DNA of 64,000 bases from Minisyncoccota bacterium (GTDB lineage Bacteria; Patescibacteriota; Minisyncoccia; Phycocordibacterales; UBA6065). Within the stretch, counting starts at the first letter, position 1. Each line of letters opens with the position of its first letter. A program made the translations under genes and the position numbers. This document shows positions 6,418-28,401 of the stretch, one piece after another. Under the pieces are notes generated by a model. The model saw only the letters and a list, made by a program, of their open reading frames with translations. It had not been told where the DNA came from and did not search any database. Location: contig DASWWW010000001.1 of the NCBI GenBank assembly GCA_036400935.1, positions 118,375 to 182,374 of the forward strand, given 5' to 3'.

Positions 6418-8004
6418 ATGACTAAGAAAATCATCGTCTCGGCCCTTTTCGCAGCCGTACTCTTGGGCGGAGTCCAGAGAGCGGAAGCAATGTCTTTCTC
6501 GGAGCTTATTGAGTTTCTTATAAACGCCGGAATTATAGCGCAGAATAAGGCTGCCGAAGCTCGCGCGGCCATAGCCGTAGGCACGGGTCAGCAGTCGAAC
6601 TGCCATATGTTCAATTCGAACTTTGGGGTAGGGTCGGGCGGGCCGGACGTAGCCGCCTTGGGCAAGATCCTTGCCAAGGAGGGGCTGCGTAGCGTTGCTG
6701 GCAATTCCTATGATGAGGAAATGGCCGCTTCAGTCGTGAGCTTTCAGGCGCGCTACGGCATACCATCGACAGGATATGTTGGTCCGCTTACTAGGGCGCA
6801 TCTCAATCAGGTGTCGTGCTCGCCTGCGTCGAGCTCGAAATCTGCGCCAGCGGCCAGTTCGATCCCTGCTTCTGTTCCAGCAAAGCCGGCGGCCACTATC
6901 ATTTCCGCTCCGGTCGTGCTCGCGCCCGCGCCGGGCAGCGTTTGGGACGTAAACGGGAACTATACCGTCAAAATCCAGTTTCCATCGCAAGAATCGGGAA
7001 AAGTCGCGAAGCTTGGCCTAAGCATTTGCCCCGCAACATTTGGCAGCTGTTACATTTTGGAATCGTATGACTCGAGGCTGCCTCTCGGTCAGAATCCCAT
7101 AGCCGAAGTCCCATGGTCCTCGATCAGGGAAATGAATACGAGCATTGCTCCTGGAAAGTACAAGCTTGCCGTCGTCGTGAACGATTCCGATCACTACAAC
7201 AACATATCGGTTGATGGCGGGGAATTCACCGTGACCGGCAGCTTTACACGGCAGGCTTCGCAACAGCCGCAGCCTTCTGGTGACTCGAGCTCGATGGCAC
7301 AGGACTGGTCGGCAACGTCGTTTGTTGGATACTCTCTCGTGAGGGACCTTTCGATTGGTTCTTTGGGGCGCGACGTCGCAATCCTCCAGGATTTTCTTTG
7401 GACAAAATCTTTCTTGCAGATGAGTTCCGGCGTCGTGCACGGCTCTTTTGATCAGGCTACGGCCGATGCGCTTTCCAGGTACCAGGTTTCTGTTGGACTC
7501 TCAGCAAGCGGTTCCGTAGGATCTCTTACGAGGGCGTCTCTCAATACGGCTTTTACATCACAGGCCCCCAATTCTGTTGCCGTTCCCGCTTCAAATCCAG
7601 CAAGCAGTCCGATGCCGCAGGTGTCATGTCCTCAGTCCGTGAGTCTCCCGGGATTTACGCTCACCCTTGAGCCGTGTGAGATTGTTAATGCTTCCTTGAC
7701 CGACGAGCAAGGGGATTTGAAGTTCAAGGTAAGGATCACCGCGAGCGATCCGGGCGCTTCTTTTTCCTTCTATGCATCCTATGCCTCAACTGTCGGTTTT
7801 CCGCCCTATTCGGTTTTGATGGGATCGGGCGCCACTGTGGGCGGCGCAGAATTCGACCTGACTTTCGTTGAAGGTATGCTTTCGGCTAACGGATCTGAGC
7901 CGCGAACATATAGCGGCTATTTGCCAATAACCGTCCTCGATCCCAAGGAGAACAAAGCTTATCTTTATATGAGGCTCAACCTTACGGTAAATCCTGCGAA
8001 CTAG
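6418..8004 (+). CDS. secreted protein with two PG_binding_1 (peptidoglycan-binding) domains, inserted between rpsJ and rplC
   Basis: It has a signal peptide and a conserved N-terminal module (SFSELIEFLINAGIIAQNKAAEARAAI). It also has PG-binding-like segments (GPDVAALGKILAKEGL...GYVGPLTRAHL and GRDVAILQDFLW...VGSLTRASL). Confidence 0.75.
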   Translation: MTKKIIVSALFAAVLLGGVQRAEAMSFSELIEFLINAGIIAQNKAAEARAAIAVGTGQQSNCHMFNSNFGVGSGGPDVAALGKILAKEGLRSVAGNSYDEEMAASVVSFQARYGIPSTGYVGPLTRAHLNQVSCSPASSSKSAPAASSIPASVPAKPAATIISAPVVLAPAPGSVWDVNGNYTVKIQFPSQESGKVAKLGLSICPATFGSCYILESYDSRLPLGQNPIAEVPWSSIREMNTSIAPGKYKLAVVVNDSDHYNNISVDGGEFTVTGSFTRQASQQPQPSGDSSSMAQDWSATSFVGYSLVRDLSIGSLGRDVAILQDFLWTKSFLQMSSGVVHGSFDQATADALSRYQVSVGLSASGSVGSLTRASLNTAFTSQAPNSVAVPASNPASSPMPQVSCPQSVSLPGFTLTLEPCEIVNASLTDEQGDLKFKVRITASDPGASFSFYASYASTVGFPPYSVLMGSGATVGGAEFDLTFVEGMLSANGSEPRTYSGYLPITVLDPKENKAYLYMRLNLTVNPAN

Positions 8005-8010
8005 TTTGAG

Positions 8011-8040
8011 AAAGCCGCCCGCAAGAGCGGCTTTTTCTTT
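8011..8040 (+). terminator. rho-independent terminator
   Basis: The hairpin AAAGCCGCCCGCAAGAGCGGCTTTTT follows the stop. Confidence 0.7.
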
Positions 8041-8066
8041 GACAAATGCTGCTAGAAGAGTAGTCT
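8039..8066 (+). promoter_or_regulatory. promoter-like TTGACA-16-TAGTCT
   Basis: It lies upstream of the ATG at 8079. Confidence 0.35.
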
Positions 8067-8078
8067 ACATACCGGCAC

Positions 8079-8447
8079 ATGAAGCAAAAAATAGCGGTCA
8101 TTGACTACCAATTGGGTCGGCTCGAGCCTCTGCGCCAGCTGCTCGCAGGCGCTGGGTATGAGGTGCTCCCGATCCTTATCGAGGAGGGAACGTACTACGA
8201 ATCGATAAATAAGGTAAAGGTGTTCGGTCCGGATCTTATCCTGACGGTGCATGTCCTCGGTATCGACGGCGTGAACGGCAGCCACGTATCGCGTGCGCTC
8301 GACTTGCCCAAAACCAGGCTCGTGGGCACTGACGAAAGCAAGGTGGCACAGCCGTACTGCGCGGCACGGTTCGATATCAAGGGCGTGCACGCTTCGGACA
8401 GTTCCAAGCGCAAGTTCATAGCCTTCATCAAAGCGGCCCTCTCCTAA
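8079..8447 (+). CDS. small CheY-like pseudo-receiver domain protein that lacks the phospho-acceptor Asp
   Basis: It has a receiver-like beta-alpha pattern (KIAVIDYQ...GPDLILTVHVLGIDG...LVGTDES...K). The position aligned with CheY D57 is Val, and the acidic pair is DY instead of DD. A terminator hairpin at 8433..8464 overlaps the stop. Confidence 0.5.
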   Translation: MKQKIAVIDYQLGRLEPLRQLLAGAGYEVLPILIEEGTYYESINKVKVFGPDLILTVHVLGIDGVNGSHVSRALDLPKTRLVGTDESKVAQPYCAARFDIKGVHASDSSKRKFIAFIKAALS

Positions 8448-8473
8448 AGGGGCCGCTTTTTTCTTGCCGAATC

Positions 8474-8502
8474 TTGCATAATCCGCCCTTTTGAGGTAAT
8501 AT
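8474..8502 (+). promoter_or_regulatory. sigma70-like promoter TTGCAT-17-TAATAT followed by a roughly 90 nt leader upstream of rplC
   Basis: Hexamers and spacing are consensus-like. The leader may be an r-protein autoregulatory target. Confidence 0.5.
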
Positions 8503-8592
8503 CTTTGCCACTGAAGCAAGGGGCTTCTGGTCAGTTTTAATAGGTCAGTTAAGAGAGCCTACGGAGTCTCATACTCCGCGCTCGTCCAAACA

Positions 8593-9219
8593 ATGAAGAA
8601 ATTCATCCTCGGCACGAAAAAGGCTATGACTCAGGTCTTCGACGCTGACGGTATCGCATATCCTGCGACCGTCCTGTCGGCAGGTCCTGTCGTCGTAACC
8701 CAGGTTAAGACGGTAGAGAATGACGGTTATGCTGCTCTTCAGGTAGGTTTCGGCCTCCAGAAGGAACAGCGCCTTACAAAGGCGGTAAAGGGCCACGTAA
8801 AGCAGCTCGGATTCTTCCGACACATCGCGGAGTTCTGCGTTGATGCGGCAGAGGTTGCAAAGGCAAAGGTAGGCGACAAGATCGACCTCAGCACTTTCGC
8901 TGCGGGCGACCTCGTTACTGTCCGATCGCAGGCAAAAGGAAAGGGCTTCCAGGGTGCCGTCAAGCGACATCACTTCGGTGGAGGACGCCGATCTCACGGT
9001 CAGAAGCACTCTGAGCGAGAAGTTGGTTCTATCAACGGCGGAGGCCGCGTAGGATCTGGACGCGTCGCAAAGGGCAAGCGAATGCCAGGACGCATGGGAA
9101 ATGACATGGTCACTGTAAAGAATCTCAAGGTTCTCCAGGTTCGCCCTGAGTCGAACGAGATCGTTATCCACGGATCCCTTCCTGGTCGAAAGGGCGTACT
9201 CGTATCTATCGTTGCGTAA
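8593..9219 (+). CDS. rplC: 50S ribosomal protein L3
   Basis: L3 homology runs the full length. Confidence 0.93.
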   Translation: MKKFILGTKKAMTQVFDADGIAYPATVLSAGPVVVTQVKTVENDGYAALQVGFGLQKEQRLTKAVKGHVKQLGFFRHIAEFCVDAAEVAKAKVGDKIDLSTFAAGDLVTVRSQAKGKGFQGAVKRHHFGGGRRSHGQKHSEREVGSINGGGRVGSGRVAKGKRMPGRMGNDMVTVKNLKVLQVRPESNEIVIHGSLPGRKGVLVSIVA

Positions 9220-10453: not shown

Positions 10454-11308
10454 ATGAAAACATATCGACCAACAAGCCCGGGACGACGCCAGATGCAGAC
10501 GGTCAACTTCAAGGAGTACATCACCAAGAAGGACCCGTTGAAGGCCCTCACCCGAGGACGAAAACGAGACGTAGGACGAAACTCTGCGGGACGCGTGACC
10601 GTACGACACAAGGGAGGCGGACACAAGAGGCTCTATCGAGAGATCTCGTTCATGTTCGACAAGAAGGACATCCCGGCGACGATCCAGTCTGTCGAGTACG
10701 ATCCTAACCGATCAGGATTCATCGGCCTCGTCGCGTATCGCGACGGCGAGCGACGCTACGTTCTCCTTCCAAAGGCGGCAAAGGTAGGCGGAACCATCAT
10801 CGCTGGCGCAACTGCTCCTATCGAGCCAGGAAACGCCCTTCCTTTGAAGAAGATCCCAGTAGGTACATTCATCTACAACATCGAGCTCAAGCCTAACTCA
10901 GGCGCAAAGGCGGCTCGAGCGGCGGGTATCTTCGCTCAGGTCATCGGTAACGACGCAAGCTACACCATGATCAAGATGCCATCGACCGAGGTCCGAAAGG
11001 TCCACGAGGAGGCATACGCTATGATTGGCCAGGTATCGAACGACGAGCACTGGTTGGTAAACTCAGGCAAGGCAGGACGCTCACGATGGCTCGGCATTCG
11101 ACCGACCGTCCGAGGTACAGCCCAGAACCCTGTAGATCATCCATACGGAGGAGGTGAAGGACGACAGGGACGAGGCCTTCGACGACTCAAGACCCGCTGG
11201 GGTAAGCCAGCAGGAAAGGGCCAGAAGACTCGAACCCCAAAGAAGTACTCGAACGTCTTCATCGTTTCTCGCCGAAAGGTCGGAAAGGACCGAAACTCGA
11301 TCCAGTAA
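10454..11308 (+). CDS. rplB: 50S ribosomal protein L2
   Basis: L2 motifs are present throughout. Confidence 0.95.
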   Translation: MKTYRPTSPGRRQMQTVNFKEYITKKDPLKALTRGRKRDVGRNSAGRVTVRHKGGGHKRLYREISFMFDKKDIPATIQSVEYDPNRSGFIGLVAYRDGERRYVLLPKAAKVGGTIIAGATAPIEPGNALPLKKIPVGTFIYNIELKPNSGAKAARAAGIFAQVIGNDASYTMIKMPSTEVRKVHEEAYAMIGQVSNDEHWLVNSGKAGRSRWLGIRPTVRGTAQNPVDHPYGGGEGRQGRGLRRLKTRWGKPAGKGQKTRTPKKYSNVFIVSRRKVGKDRNSIQ

Positions 11309-11321
11309 ATCTAAATTTTCT

Positions 11322-11357
11322 AAAGCAAAGCGCCCGAAAGGGCGTTTTTGCTTTGCC
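11322..11357 (+). terminator. rho-independent terminator after rplB
   Basis: The hairpin AAAGCAAAGCGCCCGAAAGGGCGTTTTTGCTTTGCC follows the stop. Confidence 0.7.
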
Positions 11358-11381
11358 TGAAAGCGGTGCTAGACTGTTCGC

Positions 11382-11912
11382 ATGGAAAACAATACACATC
11401 AGAACGCATTTACTCAGGCTAATCCGGCTTCAGCCCCGGCGTCAGTCGCTCCAGCTTCTGGCAAAAGCTCTTTCTGGAAGGGCGTAGCGGTCGGTGCGGT
11501 AGGCATAGTCGTGCTCATGATCCTCGTCTCTATCCTTGCGGCAGGCTTTGCCTACTCGAGGGTCCAGCCCGCCCTCAACAATGCCCAGATCAAGGGCAAT
11601 CTTGCGGCGGTGCGTGCCAATCTCTCCAATCTGCGTGCCGAGGCCGAGGTGTATTATGACCGCAATAACGGCTCGTACGCGGGAGTCTGCAGGAGCGACA
11701 ATTTCGATGCTACCCTTAATAGCATCGTGTCGCCGATCGCTCTCAACGGTGACGTTATGTGCGCCGCTAACGCCCAGGAATACATTGCCGCGGCGACCGT
11801 TCAGGATGTCGACGGCATAAGGATGGTCTGCGTGGACAGCACGGGCGCAGCGACCTCTAATTTTGGAAGGGCGAAGGACCATTTCGCGGCGGAAAAAATG
11901 ACCTGCAACTAG
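11382..11912 (+). CDS. N-terminally anchored pilin-like protein (a type IV pilin-like helix with a C-terminal Cys pair but no prepilin cleavage motif), inserted between rplB and def
   Basis: A long TM helix is followed by a pilin-like segment (AAVRANLSNLRAEAEVYYDRNNGSYAG) and C-terminal cysteines (MCAAN...MVCVD...MTCN). There is no G/FTLIE class III signal. Confidence 0.5.
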   Translation: MENNTHQNAFTQANPASAPASVAPASGKSSFWKGVAVGAVGIVVLMILVSILAAGFAYSRVQPALNNAQIKGNLAAVRANLSNLRAEAEVYYDRNNGSYAGVCRSDNFDATLNSIVSPIALNGDVMCAANAQEYIAAATVQDVDGIRMVCVDSTGAATSNFGRAKDHFAAEKMTCN

Positions 11913-11913
11913 C

Positions 11914-12474
11914 ATGAGCAAGCAGAAGCCGACACTCTTGCGCATCGCCGAAATAGGAAACCCGGTCCTTCGCGCTATCGCGGCCCCTGTCGCCGATCCG
12001 AAGGCTCCCGAGATCCAGCACCTGATCGACAGCATGATAGCGACGTGCGCCGAGCAGGGAGGTGTCGGCATGGCCGCACCTCAGGTGCATGAGTCATCCC
12101 GCCTGATGATCATCGCCTCTACGCCCACTCCGGCGTATCCGGACGCGCCGAAGGTAAAGCCCTTTGCCGTCATAAACCCGGAGCTTATCGCTTCGTCGAA
12201 AGAGACAGAGCTCGGCTGGGAAGGGTGCATGAGCGTGCCCAATATCCGCGGGCAGGTGGATCGCAACGTGTGGGTGAAGGTTAGCTATACCGACCGTGCG
12301 GGCAAAAAGACCCAAAAGCGCTTTACTGGCCTCATCGCTCGCATATTCCAGCACGAGCTCGATCATTTGAACGGCCTCTTCTTCCTCGATCGGGCGAATC
12401 CAAAGACGCTCGTATCGAATGCGGAGTTCCAGAAGATTATGGCTAAGGGTAAGAAACCTAAGAATAAGAAATAA
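11914..12474 (+). CDS. def: peptide deformylase
   Basis: The GVGMAAPQ, EGCMS and QHELDHLNG (HExxH) motifs are present. Confidence 0.92.
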   Translation: MSKQKPTLLRIAEIGNPVLRAIAAPVADPKAPEIQHLIDSMIATCAEQGGVGMAAPQVHESSRLMIIASTPTPAYPDAPKVKPFAVINPELIASSKETELGWEGCMSVPNIRGQVDRNVWVKVSYTDRAGKKTQKRFTGLIARIFQHELDHLNGLFFLDRANPKTLVSNAEFQKIMAKGKKPKNKK

Positions 12475-12476
12475 TC

Positions 12477-12902
12477 ATGAAATTCCTCCTCAATACCTCG
12501 GAAAAGATAGGGAACTTCGGCTTTTGGCGCATCCTTACCAATTTCTGGACGGTAGTGTTCTATATCGCCATCACGTACGATTTCTTTTCTCATAACGCCC
12601 TCGATGAGAATCACATAATCCTCGCGGTCGCTGGAATATACTGTGCGTCGCTCGCCATCTACAGCGCCGAGAAGGAATTCCGCCGCTGGCATCACATGCA
12701 TCAGACTATGCACCCGGGTGAGATGTACGCCTTGCTCTGGACGCTTTTCATAATCGCGCTCATCACCGCCCAGGTCACGACAGGCGTCGAATATCACATG
12801 CCGCCGGAAGTCAGCGCCTCGTACATCGCCGTGATCTCGATCTTGGCCCTCACGCGCGAGTCTAAGAACATGTATAAGAGGAAAGGAGGGAAGAGGAATT
12901 AA
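12477..12902 (+). CDS. small integral membrane protein (hypothetical, about 4 TM)
   Basis: It has hydrophobic segments, and its start overlaps the def stop (ATAATCATG). Confidence 0.5.
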   Translation: MKFLLNTSEKIGNFGFWRILTNFWTVVFYIAITYDFFSHNALDENHIILAVAGIYCASLAIYSAEKEFRRWHHMHQTMHPGEMYALLWTLFIIALITAQVTTGVEYHMPPEVSASYIAVISILALTRESKNMYKRKGGKRN

Positions 12903-12907
12903 AGATA

Positions 12908-12934
12908 CCCGCCTCGGCATTTTGCCTTGGCGGG
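12908..12934 (+). terminator. rho-independent terminator
   Basis: The hairpin is CCCGCCTCGGCATTTTGCCTTGGCGGG. Confidence 0.55.
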
Positions 12935-12943
12935 TAGGGTAAT

Positions 12944-12972
12944 TTGACATTTCACGCCCCTTCCGCTAGTAT
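12944..12972 (+). promoter_or_regulatory. sigma70-like promoter TTGACA-17-TAGTAT for the rpsS-rplE block, followed by a palindrome-rich leader (12980..13096)
   Basis: It has the same hexamers and spacing as the rpsZ promoter at 17151. The leader holds the palindromes CTAGATCGAATCTAG and AACCTAGGTT. Confidence 0.55.
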
Positions 12973-13096
12973 GTCCAAACCAGTTCGAAATAGGGTATCT
13001 AGATCGAATCTAGGCTTATAAACCTAGGTTTTTCATTTCTAGAGCTGTCACACCATGACACCCTAGCCGCTCGAGCTTATAATTTATTGTCTCTAA

Positions 13097-13450
13097 ATGA
13101 CACGATCACTCTCAAAAGGCCCTTACGTAGACGAACGCGTTCTCGCAAAGATCGCAGGAAAGAAGCCACAGGAAACTGGGGTTATTAAGACTTGGTCACG
13201 AGCATGCCACATCTCTCCTGAGATGGTCGGCTTTAAGTTCGGCGTACATAACGGCAAAGACTTCATCGAGGTATTGGTGGCAGAGGACATGGTGGGCCAC
13301 CGACTCGGTGAATTTTCTTTGACCCGAAAGTTCTCGAAGCACGGAGGAAAGATGCAGAAGGAGCTCGAGATGAAGAAGAAGGAGAGCGAGGTCGCGGCAG
13401 CTCAGGCGGCAAAGGGCGCGGCTACTGATAAGAAGGCAGCAGCAAAATAA
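13097..13450 (+). CDS. rpsS: 30S ribosomal protein S19 with a Lys/Ala-rich C-terminal extension
   Basis: The S19 core (GPYVDERVL...HNGK) is present. Confidence 0.93.
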
Positions 13451-15899: not shown

Positions 15900-16448
15900 A
15901 TGAAAACTCTCAAAGAAAAGCAGGCAGACGCATACGAGGTGATGAAGAAGCAGTTCGGCTTCACCAACGCGATGCAGGCTCCAAAGATCCTCAAGGTTGT
16001 CGTCTCTGCGGGCGTCGGATCTTTCGGCGACAAGAAGAAGGTAGAACTCGCTGGCGACCGATTGATGAAGATCACCGGTCAGAAGGCTGTCCTTCGCGGC
16101 GCGAAGAAGTCTATCGCTTCGTACAAGAGCCGAGAAGGCGATCCTATGGGCTACCAGGTCACCCTCCGAGGCGCAAAGATGTGGCACTTCCTCGAGAAGC
16201 TCGTCAACATCGCTCTCCCTCGAACAAAGGACTTCCGCGGACTCCCATCTACATCGGCTGATGGAATGGGCGGATACTCTATCGGAATCAAGGAGACCTC
16301 TATTTTCCCTGAGTGCTCTGAAGAAGAGTTGAAGGACGTATTCGGCCTCGGCATTACTGTCGTAACGAACGTAAAGCCGAAGGATCAGACAAAGAAGTTC
16401 CTCGAGCTCCTCAATTTCCCGATCAAGAAGGTAGAAGCATCAAAATAA
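15900..16448 (+). CDS. rplE: 50S ribosomal protein L5
   Basis: L5 homology is present. Confidence 0.93.
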   Translation: MKTLKEKQADAYEVMKKQFGFTNAMQAPKILKVVVSAGVGSFGDKKKVELAGDRLMKITGQKAVLRGAKKSIASYKSREGDPMGYQVTLRGAKMWHFLEKLVNIALPRTKDFRGLPSTSADGMGGYSIGIKETSIFPECSEEELKDVFGLGITVVTNVKPKDQTKKFLELLNFPIKKVEASK

Positions 16449-16463
16449 ATCTCAAAAAGTAGA

Positions 16464-16492
16464 AAAAGCCACCTCGAACAGGTGGTTTTTTC
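16464..16492 (+). terminator. rho-independent terminator after rplE
   Basis: The hairpin is AAAAAGCCACCTCGAACAGGTGGTTTTTT. Confidence 0.75.
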
Positions 16493-16499
16493 TTGCCTA

Positions 16500-16527
16500 T
16501 TGACTATTTTATGATATGTGCTATAGT
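16500..16527 (+). promoter_or_regulatory. promoter TTGACT-16-TATAGT firing into the non-coding island
   Basis: A consensus-like hexamer pair sits immediately after the terminator, and no credible ORF lies downstream. Confidence 0.45.
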
Positions 16528-16534
16528 GCACAGG

Positions 16535-17145
16535 CCAGATTAGTGATGCGTAGATAGGTGCCGGACATTCGAGCCCGCCTGTCGAAATCAGCGAATCGGT
16601 ATTTGGACCTGTTATTGGGAATGTATATGGTCCAAATGCTAGCGTTCCCACACATCTAGTCAGACAGCCAATGATCGCTCGGAAGATGTGTTGCTCTTTG
16701 GAAGATGACGGATTAGCGAGTGATCTAGCGCATGAATAAGACCGGTTGCTTACACTTTGGGACCGGAACCCCACTTAGTCATGTTGAATCGTGATAGCGT
16801 TTGACGTCTTGGCTTCTCGGACGTCTGAAACGGCTTGAGGACAAAAAGATGGCTTCTTCTTCGCGAAAGCCTACTTGTCGCTGCGACGAGAATATACATT
16901 AGAGCGAAGTCTGCAGCTTCTGCAGATTTGCCCGAAAGGGCAGAAAGGGGGCGTGTCACCATGTGTGCCACGCTCTTTTACGTTATGGTACGACTTTACT
17001 TAGGTAAAAATTGATGAGGTGTTCATCCCTTCCTCCCTATATTTCGCCTGAATAGGGGCTCACGGAGGCCGGCGGGCCGAGCGTGAAGGCGTTCCGTCCA
17101 TCGGAACGACCTGGACCCTAGGCAGGCGAAATATAGGGAGGAAGT
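16535..17145 (+). ncRNA. candidate structured non-coding RNA or regulatory island between rplE and rpsZ, identity unknown
   Basis: About 600 nt have no protein-like ORF. A 22 bp perfect inverted repeat (CTTCCTCCCTATATTTCGCCTG at 17019..17040 and CAGGCGAAATATAGGGAGGAAG at 17123..17144) encloses a GC-rich structured loop. Further hairpins are present (GACGTC..GACGTC, CTGCAGCTTCTGCAG). It has its own upstream promoter. Confidence 0.3.
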
Positions 17146-17150
17146 GGGGT

Positions 17151-17179
17151 TTGACACCTCGCAATTCATTTGCTAGTAT
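17151..17179 (+). promoter_or_regulatory. sigma70-like promoter TTGACA-17-TAGTAT for rpsZ-rpsH-...-secY
   Basis: It is identical in architecture to the promoter at 12944. Confidence 0.55.
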
Positions 17180-17227
17180 GCCCAGACAAGCTTTTTTCAA
17201 GGCTTTTTTATTTACATCAGGGAAAAA

Positions 17228-17413
17228 ATGGCAAAAACATCAGTAATAGCGCGGTCACAGAAGAAACCAAAGTTCTCTACGAGGACTGTACGACGATGCT
17301 TCCGCTGCGGCCGAAAGAACGGCTTTATGCGAGATTTCGGAGTATGCCGAATCTGTTTCCGCGAGCTTGCTAACGACGGCCTCATCCCTGGTATAAAGAA
17401 ATCGTCTTGGTAG
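17228..17413 (+). CDS. rpsZ: 30S ribosomal protein S14 type Z (zinc-binding, 61 aa)
   Basis: It has the CxxC...CxxC pattern ([20 protein letters not shown]). Confidence 0.93.
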
Positions 17414-22386: not shown

Positions 22387-23157
22387 ATGGCAATTAACAT
22401 CAAAAAACCCGAAGAGATAGAGATCCTGCGCGAAGGAGGGAAGCGCCATGCTTTTATATTGAAGGAGCTTTCAAAGATGGTAGCTCCCGGAGTCTCGACA
22501 AAGGACATCGATGACGCGGCGGCCAAAATGATCGCCGAGGGCGGCGACACGTCGGCCTTCCTCAACTACAAGCCGTACGGCGCAAAGAGGCCGTTCCCGG
22601 CATCGATTTGCATGTCGGTAAACGATGCGGTCGTTCACGGCATTCCGAACGAGACGCCGTATATTCTCAAGGAGGGCGATATCGTCACTCTCGACATTGG
22701 CCTTGTCCATAAGGGTATGATTACCGATGCCGCCGTAACCTTGCCTGTGGGCAAGGTGGACGCCGATTCGGCGCGACTTTTGAAGGATACGAAGCAGGCC
22801 TTGGCCCTAGGCATAAAGGCGGCTAAAGGAGGCAATACTACGGGCCATATAGGAGAGGCTATAGAGCTCTATATTGGCCCTAAAGGCTATGGAATCGTCG
22901 AGGAGCTCGCTGGGCACGGCGTAGGCTATAAAGTGCATGAAGACCCGTATGTGCCCAATTACGGCATTGCAGGCGAGGGCGACAAATTGGTCCCTGGAAT
23001 GGTCATTGCTATCGAGCCGATCGTCAATTTGGGAACAGAGAAGATAAGGCTCGACAAGGACGGCTATACCTACAGGACAGCGGATGGCAGGAATAGCGCT
23101 CATTTCGAGCATACCGTCGTCATTACCGAGAAGGGCTGCGAAGTGCTTACTCAATAA
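22387..23157 (+). CDS. map: methionine aminopeptidase type I
   Basis: It has the MetAP fold with the metal ligands D, D, H, E, E. Confidence 0.92.
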   Translation: MAINIKKPEEIEILREGGKRHAFILKELSKMVAPGVSTKDIDDAAAKMIAEGGDTSAFLNYKPYGAKRPFPASICMSVNDAVVHGIPNETPYILKEGDIVTLDIGLVHKGMITDAAVTLPVGKVDADSARLLKDTKQALALGIKAAKGGNTTGHIGEAIELYIGPKGYGIVEELAGHGVGYKVHEDPYVPNYGIAGEGDKLVPGMVIAIEPIVNLGTEKIRLDKDGYTYRTADGRNSAHFEHTVVITEKGCEVLTQ

Positions 23158-27027: not shown

Positions 27028-28401
27028 ATGAAAGGCTACACGCTCACAGGCTGCGGGGGAATAGGCAACGCCACGGGCGCCAATTTTCTGCTGAAGACCC
27101 CTGACATGAAGATCCTCGTCGATTGTGGCCTTGTGCAAGGGTCGAAAGAGCAGTCTCTCGAGAACCGCGACGCCTTTCCGTATCAGGCTGGCGACATCTC
27201 GTACCTTTTGGTCACGCACGCTCACATGGATCATATCGGCCGCATCCCAAAGCTCGTGAGGGAGGGCTTTGCGGGAACGATCTATTCGACAGCCGAGACC
27301 AGGGAGCTCGCCGCTATCATGCTCGAGGACGCCCAGATGCTCCTTGCCCGCGAGGCAAAGAACGGGGGATACGAGCCGCTGTACGAAAAATCGCATATCT
27401 TCGAGGCGATGGCTCTCTGGAAGACCGTGCCGTACCATCAGAATTTTTCTATCTCGAAGAACATCTCTTTCTATCTCAAAGATGCTGGCCACATACTCGG
27501 TTCGGCAATAGTGGAAATGACGATTACGACCGATGAGGGGCAGAAGAAGATCGCCTTTACCGGCGATCTCGGCAACTCTCCGACGCCGCTTTTGCGCGAT
27601 ACCGAATACGTTACCGACGCCGATTTCATGGTGATCGAGAGCGTATACGGTGACAGGAATCATGAGCCAAAAGACCAGCGCGACGCTAAGCTGAAGAGGA
27701 TTTTGCTCGAAACGCTCAATCGCGGCGGCACCGTGGTCATCCCCGCATTCTCGCTCGAGCGCACCCAGGTGATCCTGTATGAAGTGAACAATCTCGTCGA
27801 GAGGAAGGAGCTTCCCGCCGTCCCGGTATTTATGGACGCGCCGCTCGGCAGTAAGGCGACCGAGATATACAAGGCTCACATAGAGAATTTCAATAAGGCG
27901 GTCCAGGACGCCATCATGGCGGGCGACGACATCTTCGATTTCCCGGGATTGCGCATGGTCCGCAATCCGGACGAGTCCCGCGCCATCCATTCGATGAAGG
28001 AGCCAAAGATAATTATTGCCGGTTCAGGCATGTCCGTCGGCGGGCGAGTGCTCAGCCATGAGAAGTTCTATCTGGAAGACGCCAATGCCACCATTCTCCT
28101 CGTCGGCTATCAGGTGCCGGGCAGCCTCGGCCGCAAGATCGAGGAAAAGGTTCCGGATCTCGTCATTGAGGGCGAAAAGGTCAAAGTCCGCGCGCGTATC
28201 GAGAAAATCTCGGGCTACTCGTCGCACAAGGACTCGAACAATCTCGTCGAATTCGTATCTCATACCGCGCAGAAATTGCAGAGGATATTTGTGGCCATGG
28301 GTGAGACCAAGTCATCATCGTTCCTCGCGCAGCGATTGCGCGCCGAAGTCGGCGTCGACGCAGTCGTGCCGGAGAAGAATAGGGAATACGAGCTGTTTTA
28401 G
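27028..28401 (+). CDS. beta-CASP family metallo-beta-lactamase-fold ribonuclease (RNase J/CPSF-like)
   Basis: It has the HAHMDH(IG) motif plus downstream beta-CASP Asp/His motifs and an RNA-specificity C-terminal region. Confidence 0.8.
   Translation: MKGYTLTGCGGIGNATGANFLLKTPDMKILVDCGLVQGSKEQSLENRDAFPYQAGDISYLLVTHAHMDHIGRIPKLVREGFAGTIYSTAETRELAAIMLEDAQMLLAREAKNGGYEPLYEKSHIFEAMALWKTVPYHQNFSISKNISFYLKDAGHILGSAIVEMTITTDEGQKKIAFTGDLGNSPTPLLRDTEYVTDADFMVIESVYGDRNHEPKDQRDAKLKRILLETLNRGGTVVIPAFSLERTQVILYEVNNLVERKELPAVPVFMDAPLGSKATEIYKAHIENFNKAVQDAIMAGDDIFDFPGLRMVRNPDESRAIHSMKEPKIIIAGSGMSVGGRVLSHEKFYLEDANATILLVGYQVPGSLGRKIEEKVPDLVIEGEKVKVRARIEKISGYSSHKDSNNLVEFVSHTAQKLQRIFVAMGETKSSSFLAQRLRAEVGVDAVVPEKNREYELF

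Follow-up and report, generated by a model that had tools for sequence, protein, structure and literature searches.

Why do genes for a pilin-like protein, a peptide deformylase (def) and a small membrane protein stand between rplB and rpsS, two neighbouring genes of a ribosomal protein (r-protein) cluster? We addressed this question in a 64,000-nucleotide stretch of contig DASWWW010000001.1 (hereafter the window), which derives from a metagenome-assembled genome of Candidatus Paceibacterota (Candidate Phyla Radiation, CPR; Paceibacteria). Annotation was based on the listing of open reading frames (ORFs), on reading of the sequence, and on Pfam and NCBIfam scans, and by these means all elements and coordinates that a preliminary description had placed between the two genes were confirmed. 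On the forward strand, the order is rplB, a hairpin of terminator type, a 176-aa N-anchored ORF, def, a 141-aa ORF with four transmembrane segments (4-TM gene), a promoter, a leader RNA and rpsS. We consider it probable that this arrangement is an insulated rplB-rpsS gap with a resident 4-TM gene, swappable cargo and a separately promoted rpsS.

A conserved break with a resident gene and variable cargo

We collected about 90 genome, metagenome and assembly loci for synteny, with 32 species-representative genomes; about 45 related loci served to tell conserved from variable elements. The 4-TM gene adjoined rpsS in 21 of the 32 (one of these loci ends just past the 4-TM gene, with rplB upstream), at a distance of 110-3700 nt upstream where rpsS was on the locus, and wherever rplB was on the locus the 4-TM gene lay downstream of it. 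The metagenome and assembly loci showed the same placement. In the other 11 species genomes the 4-TM gene was located elsewhere, for example beside VanY or Mur-ligase genes, so its association with rpsS is frequent, not obligatory.

The genes around the 4-TM gene differed even between close relatives. The closest relatives, with 95% identical rplB, formed a nested series, from rplB-4TM-rpsS in locus L012 through rplB-def-4TM-rpsS in L010 (of the L004/L010 lineage) to rplB-pilin-like-def-4TM-rpsS in the window; the pilin-like gene was found in this slot in the window only. Cargo at other loci included a PG_binding protein with a ParE toxin-antitoxin pair, HisKA kinases, a HATPase-like protein, a pyridoxal-phosphate decarboxylase with an aminotransferase, an NYN/S51 peptidase, a penicillin-binding-protein/YkuD enzyme, and unknown proteins of 72-213 aa. 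Judged by gene order, the interruption with its 4-TM resident is a conserved feature of the lineage, and def and the pilin-like gene are apparently recent passengers. The preliminary description had held that a commonly conserved arrangement would be unremarkable; this applies to the break and the 4-TM gene, and does not apply to the pilin-like gene and def, which are not conserved. Canonical prepilins occupied the slot in two other lineages, with rplB on one side and the 4-TM gene on the other, at L017:3745-4881 (= L050), where the prepilin carries a Laminin_G_3 domain, and at L083:1939-2963 (= L084), where there is a tandem pair; the heads of both are unrelated to that of the window protein. 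In L076-L079 the slot contains a 136-aa gene, which was considered as a positional orthologue of the pilin-like gene and rejected as unrelated.

The upstream edge of the gap was examined next to rplB (10454-11308; Pfam Ribosomal_L2_N and Ribosomal_L2_C), the last gene of the rplC-rplD-rplW-rplB unit. The hairpin at 11321-11355 consists of an A-tract, a GC stem, a GAAA loop and a U-tract, with a folding free energy of -20.8 kcal/mol (z = -4.0), and an equivalent hairpin with a T-run was present 3' of rplB in all 11 related loci inspected besides the window. The terminator proposed earlier at this point is thus supported as a predicted element of conserved position. Directly past the hairpin, a TGnTAnnnT element followed after 6-7 nt by ATG preceded whichever gene came first, namely the 4-TM gene in L012, L008, L044, L042 and L040, def in L010, a prepilin in L083 and the pilin-like gene in the window. 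In the window this extended -10-like element reads TGcTAGACT (11367-11375) and is separated by 6 nt from the ATG that opens the pilin-like ORF, which suggests a leaderless transcript spanning the pilin-like, def and 4-TM genes. More generally, 20 of the 85 ORFs in the window have TAnnnT at 5-8 nt ahead of their start codon, compared to 3.2% at random positions, and leaderless transcripts therefore seem common in this genome. Shine-Dalgarno sequences were not evident before the r-protein genes of the window, and together with the TAnnnT excess this suggests widespread leaderless or Shine-Dalgarno-independent initiation.

At the downstream edge, a sigma-70-type promoter, TTGACA-17-TAGTAT, was located at 12944-12972. 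The pattern TTGAC(A/T)-N17-(TG)nTAnnAT was present upstream of rpsS in 22 of 22 aligned loci and in 47 of 47 by pattern, compared to a chance expectation of about 0.09 matches per locus. The predicted promoter given in the preliminary description, and the structured leader described with it, accordingly recur in relatives. Similar promoters precede tuf (4579) and rpsN (17151), and TTGCAT-17-TAATAT precedes rplC; the cluster would therefore be cut into several units. A second promoter-like site, ATGACA-17-TATAAT at 13055-13083, was the best-scoring in the region (11/12); it overlaps P4 and the 3' strand of P1 within the leader (helices defined below), and was rejected as probably fortuitous because it is not conserved in relatives. 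The 4-TM gene (12477-12902) is followed by a strong hairpin without a U-tract at 12906-12936 (-21.9 kcal/mol, z = -3.7), possibly a 3'-end or stability element.

Homologues of the 4-TM protein, at least 165 in number and 57-79% identical to it, came from Paceibacterota, Taylorbacteria and Parcubacteria. Hydropathy of the 141-aa ORF showed four hydrophobic segments, and the family alignment revealed an invariant loop, YSAEKEFRRWHxxHxxxHPGE, and a tail, ILAxTRESKN, both of which hydropathy and charge place on the cytoplasmic side. In size and in its four hydrophobic segments the family resembles DUF805 (PF05656; YhaH/YhaI-type small inner-membrane proteins). However, the window protein scored 15.9 bits against a gathering threshold of 25.7, weak matches were obtained in 15 of 30 family members (best E 1e-5), and the 4-TM family differs from DUF805 in its own invariant cytoplasmic His-rich loop, its C-terminal TRESKN tail and its recurrent gene location in the rplB-rpsS gap (next to rpsS in 21 of 32 species genomes). 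A search of the family profile against PDB sequences gave no match. We conclude that the 4-TM proteins form a distinct family, related to DUF805 at most distantly.

In at least 12 distinct loci (L007/L021/L052/L054, L022, L025/L056, L029, L037, L039, L048, L049, L057, L065, L066 and L071), the immediate neighbour of the 4-TM gene, on the opposite strand, was a gene for a histidine kinase of about 260 aa with a single transmembrane segment (HisKA/HATPase). The kinase gene lay sometimes upstream (divergent) and sometimes downstream (convergent), and in L066 the pairing occurred without rpsS nearby; the window has no homologue of this kinase. Weak matches to LiaF-TM were found in 5 of 30 4-TM proteins. 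The kinase adjacency and the LiaF-TM matches may reflect a functional partnership between the 4-TM protein and the kinase.

We propose that in this Paceibacteria lineage the S10-type r-protein operon would be permanently split between rplB and rpsS, with rplB ending at an intrinsic terminator and rpsS transcribed from its own conserved sigma-70 promoter and preceded by a leader RNA. The insulated gap would be the usual home of the lineage-specific, highly conserved 4-TM gene, and would at the same time admit unrelated accessory genes, the set of which changes even from one close relative to the next. In the window it would hold one compact, probably leaderless transcription unit of the pilin-like, def and 4-TM genes, which are spaced by 1-2 nt. 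Insertion of accessory genes at borders between operons of the translation cluster is known, and the gap resembles such cases in that a transcriptional boundary tolerates accessory genes; unlike in those cases, the border here lies inside the S10 operon (rplB/rpsS), is itself conserved and has a resident conserved gene. In the literature, we did not find this rplB-rpsS split or the rpsS leader described for CPR bacteria. CPR phylogenomics rests on r-protein clusters that are usually assumed to be compact, and the S10 operon appears stably split in a large CPR class. The break would serve as a safe harbour for fast-turnover accessory genes such as surface proteins, kinases and toxin-antitoxin pairs, and the split and its cargo turnover help interpret the synteny and binning of CPR genomes.

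A structured leader RNA upstream of rpsS

Between the promoter and rpsS (13097-13450; Pfam Ribosomal_S19, 3.5e-31), the first gene of the downstream r-protein unit, a structured 5' leader was identified at 12979-13084. The 5' untranslated region (UTR) measures about 110-145 nt in the long-leader subclade to which the window belongs, and the structured leader about 105 nt. The window leader had a minimum free energy of -31.3 kcal/mol (z = -3.2), and the leaders of 15 of 15 relatives, folded independently, showed the same architecture of four helices. P1 (AGUUCGA/UCGAGCU in the window) closes the domain and is followed by a U-rich tract; P2 is UAGGGU/ACCCUA in the window and UGGAC/GUCCA or UGGGC/GCCCA in relatives; P3, CUAGG...CCUAG, is a hairpin of nearly invariant sequence with a U-run behind it; and P4 is a variable hairpin (GUCA/UGAC, GUUG/CAAC, GGUUUU/AAAACC and others). 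At the leader pairs, 96-97% of cells were paired, compared to 20-44% when the partners were slid. Compensatory changes on both sides were seen at 6-7 pairs, with a covariation score above all 500 shuffles, across 17 distinct, closely related sequences of one subclade in an alignment fitted to the model. A covariance model built on 14 sequences detected one copy per locus, always before rpsS and including three sequences outside the training set, and revealed no further copies in the whole window or in about 80 loci. In short-leader Taylorbacteria-type clades, a P1-like hairpin (AGCUC-UUCG-GAGCU) with a U-tract was found just past the promoter.

As expected of a ribosomal leader (r-leader), the element lies in the 5' UTR of an r-protein operon and has a secondary structure that is conserved and shows covariation. 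The E. coli S10 leader acts by L4-mediated attenuation. A survey of new ribosomal leaders (Eckert & Weinberg 2020, PMC7247131) contains none for rpsS or for CPR bacteria, and reports an Alphaproteobacteria L2 r-leader candidate upstream of rplB-rpsS-rplV-rpsC. Like the S10 leader and the L2 candidate, the rpsS leader is a conserved structured 5' UTR RNA with hairpins followed by U-tracts, a layout compatible with attenuation. Unlike known r-leaders, it has no sequence or structure match to any Rfam family (no match in the region at gathering thresholds and none for the leader at E <= 10), it lies directly upstream of rpsS inside what is one S10 operon in other bacteria, and it is restricted to a Paceibacteria subclade. 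We regard it as a candidate ribosomal leader, new here. It would most likely be a promoter-proximal attenuator formed by P1 and its U-tract, and one of the r-proteins that the downstream operon encodes possibly controls it; as a covariation-supported element the leader is a candidate route for balancing r-protein synthesis under reduced regulatory repertoires.

The alternative that survived best is that the leader is no regulatory sensor and instead a 5' structure that shields the long r-protein mRNA from 5'-dependent decay, for instance by RNase J. In all clades no more than about 10 nt separate the predicted transcript start from the first hairpin, the short-leader clades retain only this hairpin, and the window encodes an RNase J-like Beta-CASP/RMMBL protein at 27028-28401, all of which would suit such a role. 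However, a stabiliser needs no four helices, no conserved asymmetric internal loop and no near-invariant P3 with its U-run, and in every clade the first hairpin is followed by a U-tract, as in attenuators. We therefore consider a purely protective function unlikely, though it deserves more weight than any other alternative discussed here, and retain the candidate attenuator.

A probable pilin-derived surface protein as window-specific cargo

The 176-aa ORF (11382-11912) contains one hydrophobic segment (residues 30-59) and four Cys at 103, 127, 150 and 175, which are invariant or nearly so in homologues. A word-indexed homology search with the single protein retrieved only itself and one prepilin, whereas an exhaustive phmmer search against 1.84 billion representatives yielded 1013 homologues. 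Most of these were canonical type IV prepilins from CPR bacteria, about 145 aa long and with G/FTLIE near residue 8 (the slash marking the cleavage point). Against bona fide prepilins, phmmer E-values ranged from 1e-10 to 1e-12 over residues 41-160 and tblastn values from 1e-12 to 1e-17, and the homology extended along the whole protein, past the hydrophobic helix. The shared features were the alpha1 motif SLNSAR.KG..A..ANL..R..AE.YYD..SY..VC, the second Cys and the terminal CVDSTG...C. A single-sequence AlphaFold model was unusable (predicted local distance difference test, pLDDT, 45), and fold prediction was repeated with an alignment; the result showed a long N-terminal alpha-helix on a 4-stranded antiparallel beta-sheet, which is the pilin fold. 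The pilin-like assignment of the preliminary description is thus borne out by both homology and predicted fold. In fold and ancestry the protein resembles type IV pilins (the major CPR PilA-type and Thermus thermophilus PilA4, PDB 6xxd; the minor PilV, PilE and PilX); the Ig-like pilins reported in the paper on the CPR 'Pam' pilus are unrelated to it.

The preliminary description had also noted a missing prepilin-peptidase site, and this was corroborated. No N-methylation motif (PF07963) was detected in the protein at E <= 0.1 in Pfam, and a PS00409-like prepilin motif was absent. In a gapless BLASTP alignment with prepilin P0002, G41-IVVLM stands opposite G-FTLIE; because the ancestral G/FTLIE aligns with G41/IVVLM, Glu5 corresponds to Met46. 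Unlike type IV pilins, the protein has no class III signal peptide or N-methylation motif, carries Met46 in place of Glu5, begins with an N-terminal extension of about 40 residues with an 'MENN' start and FWKG, has a helix longer by 7 residues, and is not encoded in a pilus gene cluster. The further statement that an unprocessed pilin-like fold is unusual found no support, since among the best 149 representative homologues 80 were canonical prepilins and 69 had no canonical prepilin motif. The 69 included 15 with Zn-ribbon-like N-termini and many long multidomain proteins. As a separate observation, the pilin head domain often stood behind non-pilin modules among P0130-P0270, such as a Zn-ribbon 'MFCxKCG' with transmembrane segments or 'MxPEQIxYV', and some of these proteins reached 1074 aa. 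A small subfamily (P0123-P0128, P0154, P0182, P0272 and P0273) shares the 'MENN' N-terminus and the FWKG motif at the start of the membrane helix. Its member in L082 has the same TGnTAnnnT-ATG layout in a context neither pilus nor ribosomal.

We infer that the gene product is a pilin-derived bitopic surface protein that has lost its class III signal peptide, with a cytoplasmic tail of about 30 aa, a transmembrane helix continuous with alpha1 and a globular head. Most likely it remains held in the membrane, exposes a disulfide-bonded pilin head to the outside and is not polymerised. A pilus subunit cut after Gly34 (FWKG/V) or Gly41, serving as a priming or tip minor pilin without Glu5, would be the competing explanation, and pseudopilins of the GspK type likewise combine a pilin fold with the lack of a conserved Glu5. 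We judge this improbable. Besides the missing N_methyl match and PS00409-like motif, the stretch that precedes Gly41 (VAVGAV) is hydrophobic and modelled as helix, the hydrophobic segment exceeds that of prepilins by 7 residues, and the ancestral Gly(-1) is not kept in subfamily members such as P0125. The subfamily also retains 'MENN' at the very N-terminus, and a leader that is cut off and discarded would not be expected to be conserved. No other pilin gene and no PilB, PilC or PilD were found in the 64-kb window, and T2SSE, T2SSF and Peptidase_A24 were absent among the 30 ORFs scanned in it. The 4-TM family and the pilin-derived 'MENN' family are both conserved and uncharacterised, and the cell surface is central to the episymbiotic lifestyle of the organisms that encode them.

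No support for a special coupling of def to the ribosomal genes

The def gene (11914-12474) encodes an intact enzyme by sequence. It matched Pep_deformylase at 4.4e-47 (160 bits against a cutoff of 22.8) and TIGR00079 at 135 bits (cutoff 104), with NF001159 also above its cutoff, and the catalytic motifs GVGMAAPQ, EGCMS and HELDH agree with the deformylase signatures GxGxAAxQ, EGCxS and HExxH. Compared to known deformylases it is an ordinary family member that differs only in position, beside the 4-TM gene and not in a def-fmt pair.

The preliminary description had argued that def inside the cluster couples both N-terminal processing enzymes to ribosome genes, since map is in the cluster too. 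The position of map was verified: the gene (Peptidase_M24) lies at 22387-23157, after secY-adk. This is its normal spc-operon position in many bacteria. Recruitment of def for co-expression of def and map with ribosomes could draw on the intact def gene and the map gene, both inside the cluster, and on the related L004/L010 lineage, which also has def directly upstream of the 4-TM gene. However, the predicted terminator on one side and the predicted rpsS promoter on the other would place def in a unit of its own, apart from both ribosomal operons; among about 35 distinct related lineages only 2 had def in the rplB-rpsS slot, and it was absent from the equally close L012; and the relative L011 keeps def in the canonical priA-def-fmt context elsewhere. 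Because def is variable cargo, with only two lineages having it in the slot, the coupling is unsupported, and we consider it very improbable. The def product would be an ordinary active deformylase, its gene recently inserted or retained beside the 4-TM gene and not linked in regulation to the ribosomal genes. Function is not to be read from gene position inside a ribosomal cluster, and the conserved 4-TM resident and the structured rpsS leader are the more interesting elements of the region.

That misassembly or misbinning joined the accessory genes to a ribosomal cluster in a chimeric contig could draw on the origin of the window from a metagenome-assembled genome and has next to no credence here: the identical 176-aa protein was found on six assemblies, one of them an independent 15.5-kb Logan assembly, and is not an assembly accident because the gene order is the same on all six, the same break and 4-TM gene occur in dozens of related genomes, and the base composition of the insert is not anomalous, with no discontinuity and no horizontal-transfer signal.

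Weight of the overall reading

Several points weigh against the reading of an insulated gap with a 4-TM resident, swappable cargo and a separately promoted rpsS. The 4-TM gene lies outside the gap in the 11 species genomes mentioned above, and the leader covariation has the narrow sequence base already given. The 176-aa protein could be cleaved by a prepilin peptidase at Gly34 (FWKG) or at Gly41, the gapless equivalent of Gly(-1). The search for pilB/C/D and for a second def or fmt covered the 64-kb window. The terminator, the promoters, the leaderless start and attenuation are deduced from nucleotide patterns. We nevertheless hold this reading to be probable. A bolder combination, in which the leader would represent a new CPR r-leader class (an r-protein-responsive attenuator for the second half of the split S10 operon), the 4-TM protein would be an accessory partner of the sensor-less kinase by a LiaF-like logic and the 'MENN...FWKG' proteins would be a pilin lineage turned into non-polymerising surface proteins anchored in the membrane, is tentative, and we place the three together at somewhat below even chances.

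Other features of the window

The first interruption of the cluster is the rpsJ-rplC gap (6418-8593), which contains a 528-aa PG_binding_1 protein and a 122-aa ORF (8079-8447). Past this ORF there are a terminator (8430-8459), the TTGCAT-17-TAATAT promoter-like site and a leader of about 90 nt before rplC. In L077 the corresponding gap holds an ORF similar to the 122-aa one (38% identity over 55 aa, E 1e-8), and the content of this gap also varies between relatives.

Between rplE and rpsN, about 780 nt (16448-17228) contained no convincing ORF. Promoter-like sites were observed at 16500 and 17151, the latter being TTGACA-17-TAGTAT with TG, and relatives carry a PemK toxin or a large gene in this stretch, which could be another insertion slot or a non-coding RNA. 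A transfer-messenger RNA (tmRNA) was located at 45855-46248 on the minus strand, and the window contains no rRNA. A tRNA-Ile with anticodon UAU was found at 49245-49319; this anticodon is uncommon in bacteria for AUA, for which a lysidine-modified CAU is usual.

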